Source: an uncultured Bacteroidota bacterium (GTDB lineage Bacteria; CLD3; SB21). From it: a stretch of DNA of 64,000 nt. Numbering within the stretch: position 1 is the stretch's first letter; each line of letters opens with the position of its first letter. Of the stretch, positions 2,696 through 40,700 are shown one piece after another. The notes under the pieces were generated by a model. That model ran no database searches. It worked only from the letters and a program-made list of their open reading frames with translations, and was not told the DNA's origin. The position numbers were made by a program, and so were the translations under genes. The DNA lies in contig CAZJBS010000007.1 of the NCBI GenBank assembly GCA_964544475.1, forward strand, positions 43,741 through 107,740, given 5' to 3'.

Positions 2696-5600
2696 ATGCG
2701 AAGGAGCCGGCCTGTGAAGCCACGCCCGCACGAATCGCCACCATCCGTCTGGATGCTGGTTACTATCTTTCTTTGTCTGGCTACGGGCTTTTCGGCCATT
2801 GGCTATGTGTATTATCGTACCGAACGCCAAAAAGCCCTCACGGCAAAACAGGACGAATTGGCGGCGATTGCCGATCTGAAGGTACGGAGCCTCCATCAGT
2901 GGAGACGCGAGCAATGGGGTGACGCCAACCGCGTGACGTACCATCCGAGGCTGGCCAGGCAGGTGGCGCGGGCGCGGGCGGCGAGCCATACATCATCCGA
3001 CGTTCATGAAGTCACACAATGGTTGAAATCCATGCGTGACTACGAAGAATTCGCCACGATCATGGTGTTGGATGCCGCAGGGAAATCGCGCCTCTGGATT
3101 CCGGGCGAAGATTCGATCCCGGGTCCTCTGGTACTCCGGCACTTGAGCCGGGTCATCCAATCAAGGCAACCGGAACTCATTGACATTCATGTGGGACCGA
3201 CCTCCGACGTTCACCTTGACCTCCTAGCGCCTTTGATGGATGACGAGGGGCAAGATACCATCGTCACGGGCGTTCTTCTTTTCAGAATCGACCCGCATGA
3301 TTTCCTGTTTCCTATGATTCAGACCTGGCCGACAAAAAGCCCGACGGCCGAGACTTTGATTCTGCGAAAGGAGGGAGACAGCATTGTCTTCATCAATGAA
3401 TTGCGCCACACCAATGCGCCGGCTCTGAGCCTGCGCTTTCCCATGACGGACCTGGCAAGGCCGGCGGTTCAGGCCGCGCTGGGCCGCGAAGGTGTTTTTG
3501 AAGGTACCGATTATCGGGGGCACGCCGTTTTATCCGTTTTGAGAAGCGTCCCGGACAGTCCATGGTTTCTGATCGCCAAAGTGGACATGGAAGAAATCGA
3601 TGCCTCTACCCGTCAGATCGGAATCACGGTGTGGCTCACGGTGACCCTTCTTATTTTGATCGCCGGCCTGATGATCGGCGTGCTTTGGAGAAACGCCAGC
3701 GCCCATTTTTACCGTCAACTTTACGAATCCGAAGCGGGCAGACAGGCCCTGGCGAGCCACTATGAATATCTGGTCAAGTTCGCCAACGACATCATCCTCC
3801 TGACCGACATGGACGGCCATATCCGTGAAGCCAATGACCAGGCCTGCGCGTGCTATGGATACGTTCGTGAAGAACTCCTGCGGCTGAACCTGAACGACCT
3901 CCGGGCGGAACGAGATCGGAAGGAACTAACGACAATGATGCGGGAATTGGAGGCGAGTGGAGGAAAGCGTTATGTGGTGTGGCATATGAGGCGGGACGGC
4001 ACGGAATTTCCCATCGAGGCCAGTTCCAGGACCATCCGGGTGGACGGGCACGTTTTCTTCCAGAGTATTATCAGGGACATCTCTGAAAAACAAGTCGCCG
4101 ACGAAGCGCTCCAGACAAGCGAAGCGCGTTATCGCGGTCTCTTCGAGAACATGTCGGAAGGGTTTGCCTACTGCCGGATGCTTTTCGAAAACGGCATCCC
4201 AACCGACTGGATATATCTGGCGGTCAATGACGCCTTCGAGTCCCTGACCGGATTGAAAAACGTGACCGGCAAACCGGTGTCTGAGGTTATTCCCGGCATC
4301 CGGCAATCCGATCCTGGTCTGTTTGAGATGTACGCCGACACGGCCCGGAACGGCGTCGCAAAAAAATTTGAAGTATTCGTAGAAGCCCTCCAGATGTGGT
4401 TTTCCATATCCGTTTATTCGCCGGAACCGGACCATTTTGTCGCGGTCTTCGACGTTATCACCGAACGTAAACGCGCCGAGGAGACGCTGCGCCGCAGTGA
4501 ACATAAATTCTCGATTATGTTCGAAAAGGCCGCCTTCGCCGCCTCGCTTTCACGACTGTCCGATGGTCGTCTCGTCGACGTCAACGAGGCCTTCGAACGC
4601 GATTTCGGATATTCCAAAGCGGACGTGGTCGGCAAAACGTCTTTGGAACTCGGGATCAATCCCAATGCGGCGGAACGCCAACGGGTCCTGGACATGCTGA
4701 AGGCACGCGGCAAAGTGCGTGACGTGGAAATGTCGTTGCACACGATATCCGGCAGCATCCGCTCCTTTGTCGTCAATATGGACATCGTTGACATCGGAGA
4801 AGAGAAATTCATACTGCAAACCGCCAATGACATCACGGACCGGAAAAACGCCGAACGGGAGGTGAAGGTCAGGGATGAACTGCTTCGTATGACGAGCCAA
4901 ATGGCCAAAGTCGGCGGATGGGAATTTGACACAGCGACGATGCACGGCACATGGACGGATGAAGTGGCGTTGATCCACGACTTGGATCCGCATCAGCCGA
5001 CCTCCGTCGAGTTGGGCGTCAGTTTTTATACACCGGATTCCAGGACCAAAATTGAAAAAGCCATTCAGGAAGCCATCGCGGAGGCCCGCCCGTACGATCT
5101 TGAGTTGGAGATGATCACGGCCAAAGGCATCCACAAATGGGTGCGGTCGAGCGCTTTGCCGGTCGTGGAAAACGGCGTCGTCGTTAAAGTGAAGGGCATC
5201 TTCCAGGACATTACGGAACGCAAGCTCGCCGAAGAGGAGATTCACAGTCTAAATGTCCATCTTGAACAGCGCGTCCGCGAAAGGACAGCGCAGCTGGAAG
5301 CAGCCAACAAGGAACTGGAAGCGTTTTCCTATTCGGTTTCCCATGACCTGCGGGCGCCCCTTCGCAGCATCGACGGATTCAGCCAGGCCCTGCTCGAGGA
5401 TTACGGTGAAAAACTGGATGATCATGGCAAAGACTATCTGAGCCGCGTCCGACGGTCCACCCAGCATATGGGCGTATTGATCGACGACATGATCAATCTT
5501 TCGCGGGTTACACGGCAAGCCATGAATCTTACCGAAACCAATCTGAGCCGGCTCGCCGATGGCATTGCCGCCGATTTGCAAAAATCCGACGGCCGCCGAA

Positions 5601-5980
5601 GGGTGACGTTTGCGATTTCTCCCGGGCTGATCGCGCGGTGCGATGAACGGCTGATGGGGATCGTGTTGAACAACCTCATCGGCAATGCCTGGAAATTTAC
5701 GGCCAGGGAAGCCGATGGCCGGATTGAATTTGGAAAACATACCAAAGACGGTGTGCCGGCGTTCTTCGTCAGGGATAACGGCGCCGGATTTGACATGAAC
5801 TACGTGGACAAACTTTTTGGCGCTTTCCAGCGTCTGCATCCGACGGCGGAATTTCCGGGCACCGGCATCGGGCTGGCGACTGTGCAACGCATCATACGCC
5901 GGCACGGGGGCCGGGTCTGGGCCGAGGGGAAAGTCAACGGGGGCGCCACTTTTTCATTTACACTGGGACAAGATGATTAG
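2696..5980 (+). CDS. PAS/PAC multi-domain sensor histidine kinase (HisKA + HATPase_c)
   Basis: Track ORF of 1094 aa with an N-terminal TM segment (VWMLVTIFLCLATGFSAIGYVYY) and several PAS/PAC blocks. HisKA H-box FSYSVSHDLRAPLRSIDGF is present. HATPase N, G1 and G2 boxes are present (NNLIGNAWKFT, DNGAGFD, GTGIGLATV). An alternative start GTG at 2714 is preceded by AAGGAG at 2700-2705. Confidence 0.85.
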   Translation: MRRSRPVKPRPHESPPSVWMLVTIFLCLATGFSAIGYVYYRTERQKALTAKQDELAAIADLKVRSLHQWRREQWGDANRVTYHPRLARQVARARAASHTSSDVHEVTQWLKSMRDYEEFATIMVLDAAGKSRLWIPGEDSIPGPLVLRHLSRVIQSRQPELIDIHVGPTSDVHLDLLAPLMDDEGQDTIVTGVLLFRIDPHDFLFPMIQTWPTKSPTAETLILRKEGDSIVFINELRHTNAPALSLRFPMTDLARPAVQAALGREGVFEGTDYRGHAVLSVLRSVPDSPWFLIAKVDMEEIDASTRQIGITVWLTVTLLILIAGLMIGVLWRNASAHFYRQLYESEAGRQALASHYEYLVKFANDIILLTDMDGHIREANDQACACYGYVREELLRLNLNDLRAERDRKELTTMMRELEASGGKRYVVWHMRRDGTEFPIEASSRTIRVDGHVFFQSIIRDISEKQVADEALQTSEARYRGLFENMSEGFAYCRMLFENGIPTDWIYLAVNDAFESLTGLKNVTGKPVSEVIPGIRQSDPGLFEMYADTARNGVAKKFEVFVEALQMWFSISVYSPEPDHFVAVFDVITERKRAEETLRRSEHKFSIMFEKAAFAASLSRLSDGRLVDVNEAFERDFGYSKADVVGKTSLELGINPNAAERQRVLDMLKARGKVRDVEMSLHTISGSIRSFVVNMDIVDIGEEKFILQTANDITDRKNAEREVKVRDELLRMTSQMAKVGGWEFDTATMHGTWTDEVALIHDLDPHQPTSVELGVSFYTPDSRTKIEKAIQEAIAEARPYDLELEMITAKGIHKWVRSSALPVVENGVVVKVKGIFQDITERKLAEEEIHSLNVHLEQRVRERTAQLEAANKELEAFSYSVSHDLRAPLRSIDGFSQALLEDYGEKLDDHGKDYLSRVRRSTQHMGVLIDDMINLSRVTRQAMNLTETNLSRLADGIAADLQKSDGRRRVTFAISPGLIARCDERLMGIVLNNLIGNAWKFTAREADGRIEFGKHTKDGVPAFFVRDNGAGFDMNYVDKLFGAFQRLHPTAEFPGTGIGLATVQRIIRRHGGRVWAEGKVNGGATFSFTLGQDD

Positions 5981-6042
5981 GAACTCAATTCCGTGGGCTG
6001 TGACACCCGCGACCTGCCCAGAGCTGCCTGCCGTAAGCTTGT

Positions 6043-6100
6043 CGAACCCCACCCTTGCCCTCCCCTCGAAGGGGAGGGTCGCGGTGGGGTTGACCGGCGC
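6043..6100. repeat. Copy 1 of a ~55-60 nt G/C-rich palindromic intergenic repeat (cgaa-CCCCACCCTTGCCCTCCCCTCGAAGGGGAGGGTCGCGGTGGGG-TTGACCGGC)
   Basis: Read directly from the sequence. The inner part is a 9-bp stem / 3-nt loop hairpin (ccctcccct cga aggggaggg). It is nested in an outer stem ccccaccc / ggtgggg. It is about 96 percent identical to the copy at 6362-6418. Confidence 0.6.
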
Positions 6101-6282
6101 GCGGACATCTACCGCTCCCCGAGTGGGCTGCCGAAGGCAGACCGTATCGAGGGGAGCGATGGCTTGGCGAGCACGCTCTGTTGTCACACCCGCGGGTGTC
6201 TCATTCGTTGCGGAACTGTATTCAGGTTCCTGCCAAAAGACATTCGACGGCATGAAGTTCCACGTTGAGGTGAAGTGCCATT

Positions 6283-6314
6283 GCACTTTCTCTTGTTGCG
6301 CCAAGAGAAAGTGC
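6283..6314. other. Perfect 13-bp stem hairpin (gcactttctcttg ttgcgc caagagaaagtgc) inside the HK-RR intergenic region
   Basis: Seen in sequence. No T-run follows, so it is not a classical intrinsic terminator. A perfect 16-bp palindrome gacacccgcgggtgtc also lies at about 6184-6199 in the same region. Confidence 0.4.
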
Positions 6315-6361
6315 CAAAGCGTGTCAGCCTGTGGGCTGGAGAAGGCGCTAATACACGCGCC

Positions 6362-6418
6362 GAAACCCCACCCTTGCCCTCCCCTCGAAGGGGAGGGTCG
6401 GGGTGGGGTTGACCGGCT
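6362..6418. repeat. Copy 2 of the same palindromic intergenic repeat
   Basis: ccgaaaCCCCACCCTTGCCCTCCCCTCGAAGGGGAGGGTCGGGGTGGGGTTGACCGGC. It lies about 318 nt downstream of copy 1 in direct orientation, and both copies share the flanks cgaa... and ...ttgaccggc. Confidence 0.6.
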
Positions 6419-6489
6419 CAGCGCAAGCTGCGGGACCAACAAAAAAGCGCGACAATTCTTGTCACTATTTAACGAAATGAGGAGATCCT

Positions 6490-6930
6490 ATGGCGGACAA
6501 AATCATACTCCTGGTCGAAGACAACCCGGACGATGCGGAGTTGACCATACGGGCGCTCAAAAAGAGCAACGTGGCCAATCGTATTGTGCTGACTCAGGAC
6601 GGCGCGGAAGCCCTGGACTACCTGTTTGCGACGGGTTCGTATGCCGGCCGGGACGTGCGCGATCAGCCGGCGGTGGTCCTGCTGGACCTGAAACTGCCCA
6701 AACTGGACGGCCATGAAGTCCTGAAACGCATTCGCTCGGATGATCGCAGTAAGTTCATTCCCGTGGTCATCCTGACGTCGTCCACCGAAGAACAGGATCT
6801 CGTCCGCGGATATAGTCAGGGCGCCAATAGTTTCATACGCAAACCGGTCGACTTCGTACAGTTTGCCGAATCGGCCCGGCAACTGGGCCTTTATTGGCTC
6901 GTTCTGAACGAAACCGTTTCATCCAAGTAA
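6490..6930 (+). CDS. Single-domain response regulator (CheY-like receiver, Rcp1-like)
   Basis: 146 aa beginning MADKIILLVEDNPDDAELTIRALKK, with phospho-acceptor context VVLLDLKLPKLDG and a conserved K in IRKPVDF. GGAG lies 7 nt upstream of the ATG. Confidence 0.85.
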   Translation: MADKIILLVEDNPDDAELTIRALKKSNVANRIVLTQDGAEALDYLFATGSYAGRDVRDQPAVVLLDLKLPKLDGHEVLKRIRSDDRSKFIPVVILTSSTEEQDLVRGYSQGANSFIRKPVDFVQFAESARQLGLYWLVLNETVSSK

Positions 6931-6947
6931 TACGAAATGAGGGTATC

Positions 6948-9900
6948 ATGAACTCCAGAAAGCAACTCTCAGTTTTGATGGTCGAGGACTCGCCGGATGA
7001 TGAAGCGCTTCTCCTTCGCTTTCTCGCGAAGAACGGCTATGATGTCCATGTTAAACGTGTGGACAGTGAACCGTTATTCCGGACCGCCCTGGCCGAACCT
7101 CAATGGCAGATCATCCTGTGCGATTTTGCCATGCCGGCTTTCAGCGGCCTGAGGGCCCTTGAGATGGTCCAGGAAATGAAAATCGATCTGCCGTTCATAT
7201 TCGTTTCCGGTACCATGGGGGAAGGGACGGCCGTCGATGCCATGCGGGCCGGCGCCCACGACTATGTGGTCAAGGGCAATCTGCAGCGCCTGGCGCCGGT
7301 CATCGAGCGCGAACTCCGCGAAGTCGAAGTCCGGCGCAAACAACGCCAGGCCGAAGAGGATCTTGTCCTGCGCAACGCCGCTTTGGAAGCCGCGGCCAAT
7401 GCGATTGTGATCACCGACGCCGATGGCACTATCCAATGGGTCAACCGTGCTTTTGCTTCACTGACGGGTTATGACTCGCGGGAAGCCATCGGCCACAACC
7501 CGCGTGAACTTCTGAAATCCGGGGCGCACGAACGGACCTTCTATGAAGAAATGTGGAACACGATTCTGGCCGGCCACGTCTGGCGGGGCGAGATGATCAA
7601 CCGCCGCAAGGACGGGACGTCCTACTACGAAGAAATGACGATCACACCGCTTTCCGACGATCACCAGCGAATCACTCATTTTATTGCGGTGAAGCAGGAC
7701 ATCACCGAACGTCATCGAGCGCAGGAGGAACTGAATAAGGGAGCTTCTTTACTACGGGCCACACTCGAATCAACGGCCGACGGCATACTGGTCGTGGATC
7801 GTGAGGGCCGTATCACGGGTTACAACGAGCGATTCCTGGAACAATGGGGCATTCCGAATTCTGTTATTTCGTCCGGTGACGACAACGAGGCGCTGTCCTT
7901 TGTCATGGATCAACTGAAAGATCCGGAATCCTTCATTGAAAAAGTGAGGGCATTGTACGCCCATCCCCGGCAGGAAAGCTTTGATCTGATTGAATTCAAG
8001 GACGGAAGAATCTTCGAGAGGTATTCGCGCCCGCAGCAACTGGGCGATCAACTGGCCGGACGGGTCTGGAGCTTTCGTGACATTACCGAACGAAAACGCT
8101 CCGAAGAGGCCCTGCTCCTCAGCGAGCATCGCTTTTCTACCGTATTTCGCAACAGCCCCATGGCTATTGCGATCACGCGATTGTCCGACAATCAATTGAT
8201 CGATGTCAACGACGCCTGGTCCGACATCACCGGATTTACGAGAGAAGACGCCGTAGGACAGTCGGCAACAGATCTCAAAATATGGGTCGATCCCACCGTC
8301 AGGGAGCAGGTTCTGTCAAGACTTGCGAAAGAGAATATTGTTCGTGGATTGGAAATCAAGGTCACCAACCGCAAGAAGGGAACGATTCACGACCTGCTTT
8401 GGTCCGCTGAAATGATTGATATCGGCGGAGAGGCTTGTATGGTGTCGATGGCGCTGGATATTACCGCAAAGAAGCAGGCTGAAACAGCGCTTAAGGAAAG
8501 CGAAGAACGCTACAGGAACCTCATCGAAAGCGCGCAGGACGTCATCGTTACGGTTGATGCCCGGGGAGTTATTACTTCCCTCAATCCGGTTTTTGAATCG
8601 ATCACAGGATGGTCCTGCACAGAGTGGATTGGCGAGCCTTTTCAAGAATTGGTGCATCCCGATGACTTACATCCCGCCACCGACAATCTTTTCTCTGTCA
8701 TGAACGGGCATACGATATCCAATCTCGAACTTCGCGTACTTTGCAAGGACGGCTCATATCGCATCAGCGATCTCCGGTTGTCGCCCATCAAAAAGGGGCA
8801 CGATATTTTGGGCGTATTCGGGATAGCCCGGGACATCACGGAGCGAAAGAAGGCCGAGACAGACCTCAAGGCGAGTGAAGAAAAATACCGGAGTTTCTTC
8901 GAAAACGATCTCTCCGGCGATTTTGTATCCACGCCCGACGGAAAACTGCTCGACTGTAACATCCAGTTTGCGCGTATCTTCGGATATGAGACGGTCGAGG
9001 AAGCCCTGGCTATGGATGTCGTCTCCCTGTATCCCCATCCCGAAGACCGGCAGAAACTACTGGACCGGCTTGCCACTGAAAAACGGCTTGACAGGATTAC
9101 GTCGGAACTTCGCCGCCGTGACGGATCGCCGGTGTACGTCGTGGAGAACCTCGTCGGCTTTTTTGATGAAAGCGGCCGTCTCACGCAACTGATGGGTTAT
9201 CTGATCGACGAAACTCACCGGAAATCGCTCGAAAAACAGCTCGTTCAGGCCCAGAAAATGGAAAGCATCGGCACTCTCGCCGGCGGTATTGCCCATGATT
9301 TCAATAACATCCTGGGCATCATCCTCGGTCATGTTTCTCTGATCAAGCGCAAGTATGCCAGCGATGAGTATATCACGTCCAATGCCGAGACGATCATTAC
9401 GACAACTCAGCGCGGCGCGGCCCTCGTCAGGCAATTGCTGACGTTTGCGCGAAAGGGCGAAGCGAAACCGGGTTCCATCCTGATTCATGAGATCATGCAG
9501 GAAACCAAGAAACTGCTGGACGAGACCTTCCCAAAGATCATCGCCATCGACGTGCATTTTGAGAAAGACCTGCCACCCATCATGGCCGATCCAACCCAGA
9601 TGCACCAGGTTTTCATCAATCTTTGTGTCAACGCGCGCGACGCCATGCCGTCGGGCGGCCGCCTGACCCTGTCCGCGGATCTGGTATCCGGACGTACGGT
9701 GAGGGATCGCTTTCCCGCCGCTCTCTCCTCCGAATATGTGCGGATTTGTTTTTCCGATACCGGCGTCGGTATGGACGAGACGACAAGAAACCGTGTTTTC
9801 GAACCCTTTTTCACCACCAAAGAGCGTGACAAAGGCACCGGGCTTGGACTGTCCGTTGTTTTTGGCATTGTCGACGCGCACCAGGGTCACATCGACGTCC

Positions 9901-10376
9901 GAAGCGAACCCGGGCAGGGCACGACGTTCGATGTTTTCCTGCCGGTCCATCAGCATTTTGTTGAAGCGCGTGAAAAACAGGAACAAACCGGGGAAGCGGC
10001 AGGCGGCCACGAAACGATTCTCGTCGTCGATGACGAGGAATTCATGATCCGCTTTTTGAAAATGATCCTGACGGAAAAGGGGTATCGTGTTCTGACGGCG
10101 CCGGACGGCAAAACGGCGTTGGCGCTGTATCAGGAGCGTCGTTCCGATATCGCCCTTGTGCTGACGGACATGGGACTCCCTCAAATGACCGGCGATGTGT
10201 TGTTCCGTGAAATCCGCTCCATCAACCCCGCGGCCAGGGTCATCATTGCCAGCGGTTTTTTTGAACCGCATCAGCGCTCGGAATTGCTCAAGGAAGGCGT
10301 GGATGAACTCGTGCAGAAGCCCTTCGTGCCGGACGTCATTCTGGGCAAGGTGCGCGAAGTGATCGACCGGAAATGA
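6948..10376 (+). CDS. Hybrid sensor histidine kinase: N-terminal REC, multiple PAS/PAC, HisKA, HATPase_c, C-terminal REC
   Basis: The track ORF starts at TTG 6894 and overlaps the upstream gene. An internal ATG at 6948 (MNSRKQLSVLMVEDSPDDE) has GAGGG 8 nt upstream and starts a receiver domain. H-box AGGIAHDFNNILGIILGHVSL is present. ATP-lid motifs are DTGVGMD and GTGLGLSVV. The C-terminal receiver reads ETILVVDDEEFMIRF...VLTDMGLPQMTG...KPF. Confidence 0.85.
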   Translation: MNSRKQLSVLMVEDSPDDEALLLRFLAKNGYDVHVKRVDSEPLFRTALAEPQWQIILCDFAMPAFSGLRALEMVQEMKIDLPFIFVSGTMGEGTAVDAMRAGAHDYVVKGNLQRLAPVIERELREVEVRRKQRQAEEDLVLRNAALEAAANAIVITDADGTIQWVNRAFASLTGYDSREAIGHNPRELLKSGAHERTFYEEMWNTILAGHVWRGEMINRRKDGTSYYEEMTITPLSDDHQRITHFIAVKQDITERHRAQEELNKGASLLRATLESTADGILVVDREGRITGYNERFLEQWGIPNSVISSGDDNEALSFVMDQLKDPESFIEKVRALYAHPRQESFDLIEFKDGRIFERYSRPQQLGDQLAGRVWSFRDITERKRSEEALLLSEHRFSTVFRNSPMAIAITRLSDNQLIDVNDAWSDITGFTREDAVGQSATDLKIWVDPTVREQVLSRLAKENIVRGLEIKVTNRKKGTIHDLLWSAEMIDIGGEACMVSMALDITAKKQAETALKESEERYRNLIESAQDVIVTVDARGVITSLNPVFESITGWSCTEWIGEPFQELVHPDDLHPATDNLFSVMNGHTISNLELRVLCKDGSYRISDLRLSPIKKGHDILGVFGIARDITERKKAETDLKASEEKYRSFFENDLSGDFVSTPDGKLLDCNIQFARIFGYETVEEALAMDVVSLYPHPEDRQKLLDRLATEKRLDRITSELRRRDGSPVYVVENLVGFFDESGRLTQLMGYLIDETHRKSLEKQLVQAQKMESIGTLAGGIAHDFNNILGIILGHVSLIKRKYASDEYITSNAETIITTTQRGAALVRQLLTFARKGEAKPGSILIHEIMQETKKLLDETFPKIIAIDVHFEKDLPPIMADPTQMHQVFINLCVNARDAMPSGGRLTLSADLVSGRTVRDRFPAALSSEYVRICFSDTGVGMDETTRNRVFEPFFTTKERDKGTGLGLSVVFGIVDAHQGHIDVRSEPGQGTTFDVFLPVHQHFVEAREKQEQTGEAAGGHETILVVDDEEFMIRFLKMILTEKGYRVLTAPDGKTALALYQERRSDIALVLTDMGLPQMTGDVLFREIRSINPAARVIIASGFFEPHQRSELLKEGVDELVQKPFVPDVILGKVREVIDRK

Positions 10377-37788: not shown

Positions 37789-40700
37789 TTACGCCACCAC
37801 TTTGGTTTCCAGTTTCGGGACGACCGCCGGCGCCGGCATCCTCCCGTTACGGCGTCCATACACCCTCCGAAACAACGCCGGCACTTTGACGCTCCACTCG
37901 TCGATCTTGGAATAAACGACAGGCACCAGGAGCAGCGTGAGAAACATCGAACTCGTCAGACCTCCGATCAAAGCCCACGCCAGGCCGGTTTTCCATTCCG
38001 AACCCGCCGCCGTGGACATGGCAATCGGCATCATGCCGATGATCATCGTAAGCGTGGTCATGAGAATCGGCCGCAGACGGCTTTTGCCGGCCTCCATCAA
38101 CGCCTCCCGCGTTCCCAGGCCGGATTCCGATTTGTTCTGGTTCGTGCGGTCCACCAGCAGGATGGCGTTCTTCCCGACAAGTCCAACGAGCATGATGATG
38201 CCCAGCATGGAAAAAATGCTCAGCGATTTCATCGTCAGCGCCATGGCGAGCAGCGCGCCCACCATTGCCACGGGAATGGAAAACATGACTACGAGCGGAT
38301 AAATGTACGAATCATACAACGCCACCATGATCATATATACGAAAATGATGCCGGCCAGGAGCGCCAGCCCGAGGCTTCCAAAGGAATCTTTCTGATTTTT
38401 CAAATCGCCCATATAGGCGAGCGAAACGCCCCTGGGCAGCGGATTCTCTTTGATGGTCTTTTCGAAATCCTGAGCGATGCTCCCGCTCGGGCGGCCCACG
38501 GCCTGCGACAAGACGGTGATCGACGTATTGCGGTCCCGCCGTTGAAGCTTGCTCGGTCCGGTCACTTTTTGGATCGTGGCAAATTGCTGCAACTCGATCG
38601 CCTGCCCGCGCCGGTTGAGGAAAGTGAGCCGGCCAATCTCGCCGGTTTTGGACCGGTCAAGTTCATCCATCACCACACGGATGTCGTACTCGTTTTCGCC
38701 GTCCCGGAATTTCGATTCGTTGTCGCCGGTCAAAGCGACACGCAGCGTGGCCCCGACCTCGGCCATCGTCAGTCCGAAAGCGGCCATCTTCTGCCGGTCG
38801 ATATCGACGCGCGTTTCGGGCTTCCCGTCCTCCGACGACAGACGCACGTCCCCGGTGCCCGGGATGGCATGCAGCATATCCACGATGCGATGCGCCGAGG
38901 CCAACACCAACGCCCGGTCGGAACCGCTCACCGCAATCTGGATCGGGGTCTGGTTGGCCGTGCCGAAAATGCCGATCGGATTCGCGCGCACTTTGACGCC
39001 GGGGATCTGCTGGACTTTTTGTTTGATCTCCCATTGCATGTCGTCCGTCGATTTCACGCGTTCCTCTTTTGGCACAAGCGTCACATTGATCTCGGCGACG
39101 TTGTTGGAGTTTTGACCCAGCAATCCTTCGTTGGAAGCGCCGACGTTGACAAAAGCCATATGGACTTCCGGCATCGCAAACAGCATACGCTCGACGTCCT
39201 GCGTCGTATAGTTCGTCTGCTCAATGGAGGCGCCCGGGGGCAGTTCGATGGTGACCGCAAATTCCCCGCGATCCGATTGCGCCACAAACTCCGAGCCGAT
39301 GAATCCCAGCGGCACGAGCGACAACGAAGCAAAAAACAACGCCAGGGTCATCAGGGCCACCTTGCCGCGGTTGGCCAGGCTCCAGCGCAACAAGGAAAGA
39401 TAGTGCGTCGTGAACCGGTCATACCACGATTCGAACCACAACGCAAACCGGCCCATCAGCGTGTCCTTCGTGAACAGTTCGATCTTCGCAAACCGGGACG
39501 CCAGCATCGGTGTGATGGTGAAAGACACAAACAGGCTGAGCAGGGTCGATACGACGACCACGACGGAAAACTGGCGCAGGATATTGCCGATCAGGCCGCT
39601 CGTAAGGGCCAATGGCACAAACACCACCACATCCACGAGTGTGATCGAAAGGGCCGCAAACCCGATTTCGTTACGGCCGATCAACGCAGCCTTGCGCCGC
39701 TCGACACCCTTTTCAAGATGATGGTAAATATTCTCCAGCACAACGATGGAATCATCGACGAGAATGCCGACGACCAGGGACAACCCCAGCAACGTCATCA
39801 GATTGAGTGAGAAATCGAACAGGTACATCGCAATGAATGTGGAGATCAACGAAGCCGGGATCGCGATCATCACAATGACCGAGTTGCGCAGGCTGTGCAA
39901 AAAGAGGAACATCACCACGGCCACGAGCAGGACGGCCAGGGCGAGATCATACTTGACCGCGTTCGCGGCATCGACCGTGAATTGCGAAATATCCTGGGCA
40001 AGCTCCATCTGCAGCCGGATATCCTTGTGCTCGTCCTGCAACTTCACAATCTCGGCCCGGACCAGTTTGCTGACCGCCACCGCATTGGCGTCGGACTGTT
40101 TCTGCACGTAAATACCGATCGACGTCTTGCCGTTGATGCGGCTGATATTGACGTAATCCCTCTGTCCGTCCTGCACTTCGGCCACGTCGGAAAGCCGAAT
40201 GTCCCCCCCGGTTTTGGAGCGCCCGAGCACCAGGTCGCGCAGGTCGTCGACGGAATGGAATTTTCCGGCCACGCGTACGACATACTGGCCGTCCTCGTCT
40301 TTGATGTTGCCGGTCGGAAAGTCCAGGTTCGACGCCTTGATGATCTCGGTGACCTGCAGGACGGACAACCCGTACCCGCGCAGTCTGGCCGCATCCAGGT
40401 TGACTCTGATTTCACGTTCATCGCCCCCGATCAACGTGACCTGACCGACGCCGGGCAACTTGGACAAACGTGGCTTGACATTGTCTTTCATGAACTGGTA
40501 GAACTCACGGGCCGGCATCGTCGACGTGGCGCCCAGCCGAACAACCGGAATTTCATCAAGGGCAAATTTCGAAATGGCCGGCGCCTTGACGTCGGCGGGA
40601 AATTTCCCTGTGATTTCACCGATTTTGCGCTGGGCATTCTGCAGGGCGACATCCACGTCGGCCCCCTGGTTGAATTCGATGAAGGCAAAGGAAACGCCTT

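Follow-up and report, generated by a model that had tools for sequence, protein, structure and literature searches.

Small intergenic repeats in which a pyrimidine/purine hairpin is followed by a third, mirror-image block have been known as BoxC, then as PIT, and then as TM or TMECO, the "intrastrand triplex motif" (Holder et al. 2015, NAR 43:10126, PMC4666352, which also cites earlier work of the Maher laboratory from 2000). The published consensus is CCCTCNCCC-N3-6-GGGNGAGGG-N3-GGGNGAGGG; its third block runs antiparallel to the purine arm, making G*G.C and T*A.T triplets, the motif is always intergenic, and some occurrences are marked as "palindromic TMECOs" (PMC4666352). Single strands of this Escherichia coli motif form a stable triplex in vitro, and none is found in duplex DNA or in vivo (PMC4666352). 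We analyzed a 64-kb stretch of DNA from an uncultured Bacteroidota bacterium (contig CAZJBS010000007.1, positions 43,741 to 107,740; referred to here as the window), in which two copies of a structured repeat lie in the spacer between a PAS histidine kinase gene and a response-regulator gene. These elements are very probably palindromic, or two-sided, members of the G/C-rich class II intrastrand triplex motifs. This class of small intergenic repeats is known and very widespread, and the elements are not of a new kind. A puzzling structured intergenic region is thereby placed in a described repeat class.

The two copies are in direct orientation, 319 bp apart, and align over 54 nt with a single mismatch (6045-6098 and 6364-6417), an identity of 98% rather than the ~96% given in the initial annotation of the locus, which had correctly recognized both. 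Allowing a 1-nt indel extends them 5' to CGAA(A), for units of 56 and 57 nt with the structure CGAA(A)-CCCCACCC-TTG-CCCTCCCC-TCGAA-GGGGAGGG-TCG-(C/G)GGTGGGG-TTGACCGGC (Table 1). The repeat stops sharply at TTGACCGGC, and the sequence outside the unit boundaries is unrelated between the copies, indicating a discrete unit rather than a piece of a segmental duplication. Neither the 43-nt pattern nor the 21-nt inner palindrome occurs at any place in the 64 kb other than these two, and both are absent from shuffled sequences. Each copy folds as a nested hairpin, as had been noted earlier, with a 9-bp inner stem and CGA loop inside an outer stem of 8 to 10 bp. The predicted RNA folds reach -41.9 kcal/mol (z -4.2) on the + strand and -40.8 kcal/mol on the - strand for copy 1, and -51.3 kcal/mol (z -6.9) and -47.3 kcal/mol, respectively, for copy 2.

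What the initial annotation overlooked is the defining feature of the unit, a third G/T block that mirrors the purine arm, along with the distribution of the core across phyla. The core reads CCCTCCCC-loop-GGGGAGGG-NNN-GGGTGGGG, that is, a pyrimidine/purine hairpin and then the mirror-image G/T block. In both copies and on both strands, the arms CCCTCCCC and GGGGAGGG form 8 of 8 Watson-Crick pairs around a 5-nt loop. Past a 3-nt loop, GGGTGGGG satisfies the purine motif (G*G.C, T*A.T) in all eight triplets for copy 2, whichever strand is read, and for copy 1 on the - strand; on its + strand, copy 1 keeps 8/8 pairs and 7/8 triplets owing to a G-to-C change. The complementary C-block on the 5' side means that either DNA strand holds a complete motif, and copy 2 is a perfect palindromic triplex motif on both. 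Our own ITxF-like scan found just these two loci among the G/C-rich candidates of the 64-kb window and none in shuffled sequences. Both lie between the kinase stop codon and the regulator start codon, hence in an intergenic position; the relatives in annotated plasmid and E. coli records are likewise not covered by any annotated feature.

The likeness to TMECO/BoxC/PIT extends to the order of the blocks (pyrimidine arm, 3- to 6-nt loop, purine arm, 3-nt loop, mirror G/T block), the G/C-rich composition, the strictly intergenic location, the lack of strand bias, the existence of palindromic occurrences, and the association with locally variable intergenic DNA. There are also differences: the host is an uncultured bacterium and not a proteobacterium, the two direct copies share private flanks (CGAA...TTGACCGGC), and the blocks CCCTCCCC, GGGGAGGG, and GGGTGGGG are 8 nt long with one T.A position, compared to 9 nt in CCCTCNCCC. 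Judged by the length of these blocks, the window's elements represent an 8-nt-block variant of the class and not TMECO itself.

How widely is this core distributed? We scanned one genome per species with a pattern consisting of the inner hairpin plus one outer block. The matches listed include Alpha-, Beta-, Gamma-, and Deltaproteobacteria, Cyanobacteria, Chloroflexi, Bacteroidota, Planctomycetota, Clostridia, Nitrospirae, and others. The prevailing form is one-sided: GGGGTGGGG follows the hairpin, and the upstream side lacks a complementary block. Among the matches listed, 175 hairpins comprise 81 with the G block downstream, 71 with the C block upstream (the opposite orientation of the same form), 19 with neither, and 4 with both; one-sided hairpins therefore number 152, and two of the four two-sided ones are the window's own copies. 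Flanks differ between genomes, the shared unit being ~35 nt, and the loops and spacers of the core fall into lineage-specific subtypes. Small dispersed repeats of Nostoc, reportedly described by Elhai and coworkers in 2008, are said to be ~20 to 30 nt long, to form hairpins, and to behave as if mobile; the likeness is by description only, and the present core also occurs in the Cyanobacteria, the group of those repeats, among the matches listed. Inverted doublets with spacers of 25 to 480 nt, or arrays, are frequent in the same set of listed matches, which holds nine doublets of the type (C-block, hairpin)...(hairpin, G-block) with spacers of 25 to 79 nt. Ordered tandem arrays of the unit with its flanks were observed at L034 5611-6325, L053 7501-7841, and L115 7350-7770 (periods of ~340 and 154 bp), and one tandem array consists of five alternating units, some with an additional small hairpin separating the G block from the purine arm.

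Annotated records locate the unit more reliably than open reading frames do. A crude test of intergenic location by open frames, applied to the cross-phylum sample, scored units at 0.56 and random positions at 0.82, a weak result in G+C-rich genomes full of spurious long frames. On plasmids, the unit occurs at 499 places in 142 records and under no annotated feature in the records listed, and no full-length match to the 56-nt unit was found. The 351-kb Pannonibacter plasmid NZ_CP013069.1 carries at least 40 places; all 5 units in its first 50 kb are intergenic and within co-directional operons, and three units, at 37830-38284, lie in the 920 bp that separate the substrate-binding-protein gene from the permease gene in a sugar ABC transporter operon. 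Units on this replicon share ~10 nt of upstream flank (cctctcagccc). A place between genes such as this ABC gap is a classic position for repetitive extragenic palindromic (REP) elements, as in malE-malF of E. coli. The one-sided form is multicopy in alphaproteobacterial replicons, where it lies between genes. Of 5426 complete E. coli genomes, 5409 carry the E. coli relative, at a median of 16 places, and the nested two-sided form is found in E. coli as well: GCCCTCACCCCAACCCTCTCCCTGTGGGAGAGGGTTGGGGTGAGGGC lies in a 114-bp gap between co-directional genes, and a plasmid has a second example between iolG and iolD.

A metagenome scan for the two-sided geometry returned 35 stretches, none of them with the TTG/TCG spacers, TCGAA loop, and TTGACCGGC tail of the window's unit. 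Several of these stretches, such as those on contigs L126, L131, L136, and L148, are apparent two-sided motifs at contig ends with long, perfectly complementary flanks; they are probably fold-back assembly artefacts at the hairpin, which calls for caution in counting palindromic forms in metagenomes. In the initial annotation, an element found only here, with the region absent in relatives and showing no transcript, was to favor a functionless local duplication. The core motif is in fact widespread, whereas the exact 56-nt unit was found at no other place in the metagenome records and plasmids searched. The distribution extends the class, since the 8-nt-block variant is found well beyond the Proteobacteria and Cyanobacteria stressed in the literature, as well as on plasmids and viral contigs. 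The core is abundant on viral and proviral contigs of IMG/VR (L171-L250, e.g., L173 and L194), with up to 6 units on a 14.8-kb contig and 5 on a 6.9-kb one among those listed. For the E. coli motif, by contrast, an association with phages or plasmids is denied in print (PMC4666352).

Of the three candidate explanations put forward in the initial annotation, a REP/BIME-like family came closest, in that the elements do belong to a known class of short intergenic palindromic repeats, although they are not REP in the strict sense. REP, BIME, and REPIN sequences are likewise short, imperfect, intergenic palindromes that occur singly, as inverted doublets, or in clusters (Stern et al. 1984; Bertels and Rainey 2011, PMC3116915), and both kinds lie within operons, for example in the ABC binding-protein/permease gap. 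Size, palindromic nature, intergenic habit, and sharp boundaries with private flanks would all fit a REP/REPIN-type element mobilized by a RAYT (REP-associated tyrosine transposase) elsewhere in the genome, and the inverted doublets with 25- to 130-nt spacers and the ordered tandem clusters match REPIN behavior (PMC3116915). Such an origin is nevertheless very unlikely. The unit has no GTAG or CGTC tag and has a mirror-repeat third block without a REP counterpart, and a tblastn search with E. coli RayT found no homologue in the window and one match in 1.28 Mb of motif-bearing loci. REP sequences are lineage specific and coevolve with their RAYT, unlike the present core, which is nearly the same across phyla. 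No link of the E. coli motif to mobile elements was found by Holder et al. (PMC4666352). The single RAYT among the 169 loci (L080, in a Xanthobacteraceae metagenome-assembled genome) is 49% identical to E. coli RayT and lies 1.9 kb from a triplex-motif doublet. The inverted repeats on either side of it (GCGCAAAATCGCCC and GGGCGATTTTGCGC, at 2860-2953 and 3619-3713) are its own, of an unrelated, GTAG-type, REPIN-like kind, and not triplex motifs; on the evidence of the window and these loci, we reject a RAYT-linked REP.

The spacer that harbors the two copies is itself atypical. Five independent homologous cassettes with the kinase-regulator-kinase order of the window have kinase-regulator gaps of 0, 14, 16, 30, and 94 bp, compared to 509 bp here; the regulators of these cassettes are just 71 to 76% identical to the window's, and the cassettes may be paralogous rather than strictly orthologous. 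Even so, the length of the spacer is clearly unusual, and it looks like lineage-specific DNA that was inserted or expanded. A 515-nt stretch covering the spacer is strongly structured relative to shuffled sequences (RNA fold z = -8.9), and BLAST matched the spacer to no plasmid or phage.

Comparison with close strains, which the initial annotation had suggested, shows that copy 2 is retained at the same place in all of them; the contigs concerned cover the spacer only from within copy 2 downstream. Regulators 98 to 100% identical to that of the window are found on dozens of short-read metagenome contigs, and the end of every contig shown falls within copy 2, at the C/G difference between the copies or at the center of the palindrome. 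These contig ends show fixation of the element in the species and at least two copies of it in those strains; two copies alone suffice to break an assembly in this way. The element thus breaks every short-read assembly at the locus and parts the kinase gene from its partner regulator gene. L159 is the close strain that diverges most; its visible half-element and the next 20 nt have no differences (0/44), and the following 61 nt have ~8 (8/61; Fisher p = 0.02 for element versus flank).

Could the elements act in cis as a regulatory RNA for the regulator and the hybrid kinase (a leader, an attenuator, or a small RNA), the two hairpins being its functional domains? The + strand folds are very stable, and G-U pairs favor that strand (-51.3 versus -47.3 kcal/mol). 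Copy 2 ends 72 nt upstream of the regulator start codon, its hairpin buries a Shine-Dalgarno-like GGAGG against CCUCC, and the element is fixed in close strains and better kept than the neighboring spacer. We nonetheless consider this reading quite improbable. The element is palindromic and carries no strand information, its core occurs in unrelated gene contexts of many phyla in either orientation among the matches listed, homologous cassettes work with junctions of 0 to 94 bp, and the regulator's own ribosome-binding site (GAGGAG, 6 nt 5' of the ATG) lies outside the element. The Rfam check called for by the initial annotation gave no match in the window: Rfam 15 had 0 matches at the gathering threshold, and hits up to E <= 10 were miRNA-type hairpin look-alikes far below the thresholds. 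The spacer has no sigma-70 site and no match to the sigma-54 pattern, whose count in the window is at chance level. As was noted earlier, no T-run follows either element or the 13-bp hairpin between them, in contrast to an intrinsic terminator with its U-tract. With no Rfam family and no promoter or terminator consensus, the earlier proposal of a structured small RNA or leader finds no support.

G-rich blocks also invite the reading that a G-quadruplex (or i-motif) alternates with the hairpin, in DNA or RNA, and modulates transcription through the spacer. Canonical four-run motifs are present, namely, GGGGAGGGTCGGGGTGGGG on the + strand of copy 2 and GGGGAGGGCAAGGGTGGGG on the - strand of both copies, and conserved E. 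coli motifs that are likewise intergenic, G-rich, and able to form a hairpin or a quadruplex have been proposed to act as a G-quadruplex-hairpin-duplex switch (Kaplan et al. 2016, PMC5100583). Those motifs are set beside BoxC/TM here by description only, and they differ from the present unit, whose full self-complementarity should favor the hairpin. Every G-run of the two-sided form can pair by Watson-Crick rules within its own strand, and the hairpin should dominate. The + strand of copy 1 has lost the quadruplex pattern by the G-to-C change and yet is retained, and the E. coli relative, studied by nuclear magnetic resonance, forms a triplex, not a quadruplex, in single strands and a plain duplex in double-stranded DNA (PMC4666352). 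A quadruplex switch is therefore extremely unlikely.

How, then, might a triplex-class repeat have come to be present twice in one spacer? The sharp boundaries and private flanks (CGAA...TTGACCGGC) suggest that the 56-nt unit was copied once within the spacer, by copy-and-paste or gene conversion rather than by segmental duplication. The two-sided form could arise where an inverted doublet of one-sided units collapses via slippage between near-identical hairpins. For the E. coli relative, partial deletions at palindromic sites leave a hairpin, and motif-bearing loci are more rearranged between strains than control loci (PMC4666352). Structure-prone DNA may have promoted the local rearrangements that built this hairpin-rich spacer. 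The locus would then extend the class in a second way, as a clean case of a two-sided unit with private flanks that was copied within one spacer and then fixed. Because the two-sided form gives the third block a Watson-Crick partner, the relevant structure would be the nested hairpin or a cruciform, with the hairpin expected to win over the triplex; in RNA, purine-motif triplexes do not form (PMC4666352). Any influence on the genes would be exerted through RNA. If kinase and regulator are still cotranscribed, the hairpins of -42 and -51 kcal/mol could be barriers to 3' exonucleases, or partial barriers to transcription, and would uncouple kinase from regulator expression, perhaps incidentally. 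A barrier role at mRNA 3' ends is known for REP sequences at malE-malF and hisJ-hisQ, which makes one plausible here by analogy. In that event, the locus would illustrate how, in nature, a selfish repeat rewires the stoichiometry of a two-component operon. Taken together, the element is most likely a selfish or neutral structure-prone repeat without a dedicated function.

Several points weigh against this account. The strict 9-nt TMECO consensus is absent, the stems being 8 nt with one T.A pair; just two copies are seen in the 64-kb window, both in one spacer; and the exact unit, with its spacers, loop, and tail, is missing from 241 million metagenome records and 72,556 plasmids. The genome scan was ascertained by its own pattern, and its counts are matches to that pattern rather than per-genome abundances of the variant. 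The better preservation of the element compared to its flank in close strains could reflect selection for function. As to the action in RNA, the REP-like role is by analogy only, and PIT elements have neither promoter nor terminator activity in E. coli (PMC4666352).

Some of these points would also agree with a one-off local duplication of a chance palindrome, or with att-like or MITE remnants of a lost insertion, belonging to no family and having no function: the two copies share one spacer that resembles an insertion and holds other short internal repeats, and the exact unit is absent from the collections searched. Such an origin is highly improbable. The core fits the pyrimidine/purine/mirror-G/T rule perfectly on both strands with no occurrence in shuffled sequences, and identical 8-nt blocks recur in many genomes among the matches listed. 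The earlier suggestion of a miniature inverted-repeat transposable element (MITE) footprint fails on the structure of the copies, which are direct, have neither terminal inverted repeats nor target duplications, and are unrelated in sequence beyond CGAA...TTGACCGGC. An integron attC site was rejected as well; the stem base is AAC...GTT, but GTTGACC misfits the attC core GTTRRRY, and the symmetric structure has no extrahelical bases. The proposal of a structure-prone repeat can also be taken further, to a 56-nt unit that is an autonomous, structure-driven replicator without a dedicated transposase, spreading for example through hairpin- or triplex-induced template switching during replication. 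The locus would then be caught just after one local copy event, the near-identical core across phyla, plasmids, and viral contigs would reflect repeated horizontal spread or convergent emergence of one self-propagating structure, and the copies would insulate kinase from regulator. We regard this extension as unlikely.

Table 1. Positions of the repeat copies, other spacer structures, and flanking genes in the 64-kb window
Feature	Position	Strand	Remarks
Copy 1 of the repeat, 56-nt unit	6043..6098	+	CGAA first, then blocks to tail TTGACCGGC (6090-6098)
Copy 1 C-head CCCCACCC	6047-6054		followed by TTG
Copy 1 pyrimidine arm CCCTCCCC	6058-6065		
Copy 1 loop TCGAA	6066-6070		
Copy 1 purine arm GGGGAGGG	6071-6078		followed by TCG
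Copy 1 third block CGGTGGGG	6082-6089		
Copy 2 of the repeat, 57 nt	6361..6417	+	core 6366-6408; third block GGGTGGGG 6401-6408; tail TTGACCGGC
Half-site copy TGTGACACCCGCG of the 14-bp palindrome	5999-6011		
Nested hairpin, arms CGCTCCCC / GGGGAGCG around a CTGCC-GAA-GGCAG hairpin	6113..6158	+	fold -31.1 kcal/mol, z -2.6
Perfect 14-bp palindrome ACACCCGCGGGTGT	6186..6199	.	weak RNA fold, z -1.3
Perfect 13-bp-stem hairpin GCACTTTCTCTTG-TTGCGC-CAAGAGAAAGTGC	6283..6314	.	-20 kcal/mol, z -5.8; no T-run on either strand
509-bp spacer between PAS histidine kinase and response-regulator genes	5981..6489	.	hairpin-rich, apparently lineage specific; ORFs, Pfam, RNA fold
Multi-PAS sensor histidine kinase (upstream gene; 1094-aa open frame)	2696..5980	+	Pfam PAS, HisKA, HATPase_c
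Single-domain response regulator (downstream gene; 146 aa)	6490..6930	+	Pfam Response_reg; identical protein on metagenome contigs
Hybrid PAS histidine kinase with receiver domains	6948..10376 (about)	+	third gene of conserved kinase-regulator-kinase cassette

The hybrid kinase is a product of 1142 aa that starts 18 nt past the regulator's stop codon, a start taken from how the gene is called on identical metagenome contigs. For the 1094-aa kinase, neither an exact nor a near-identical counterpart was found in a collection of 5.8 billion proteins, where its best matches are 61 to 64% identical over the C-terminal 359 aa, although the adjacent regulator is found on many contigs; the kinase gene is either fragmented in short-read assemblies or was missed at the candidate step of the search. 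No tRNA or tmRNA was found in a scan of the window. The open reading frames that cross the spacer have no Pfam match, in keeping with the initial annotation, to which they looked like artefacts; the elements also create spurious long open reading frames.

Between and beside the two copies, the spacer holds further small structures (Table 1). The perfect 13-bp hairpin reported earlier was recovered by the repeat search, whereas the "perfect 16-bp palindrome" is really the 14-bp ACACCCGCGGGTGT, the 16-mer matching with 1 mismatch; a palindrome of 14 bp is not unusual given 64 kb. The nested hairpin just downstream of copy 1 is possibly a decayed relative of the inner hairpin, to judge by structural resemblance only, the alignment to the copies being unconvincing. 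The 8-mer GTGGGCTG occurs three times in the spacer (5993-6000, 6123-6130, and 6331-6338), where 0.03 occurrences are expected, and once elsewhere in the 64 kb, and TGT(G/C)ACACCCGCG occurs at 5999 and 6182. Short internal repeats thus make a patchwork of the spacer; they could be sites of protein binding or traces of slippage. A terminator-like hairpin with a T-run (GTGACAAGAATTGTCGC GCTTTTTTGT) lies on the - strand at 6449-6474, just upstream of the regulator gene and with no - strand gene upstream of it; it may be a relic of inserted DNA or a bidirectional element.

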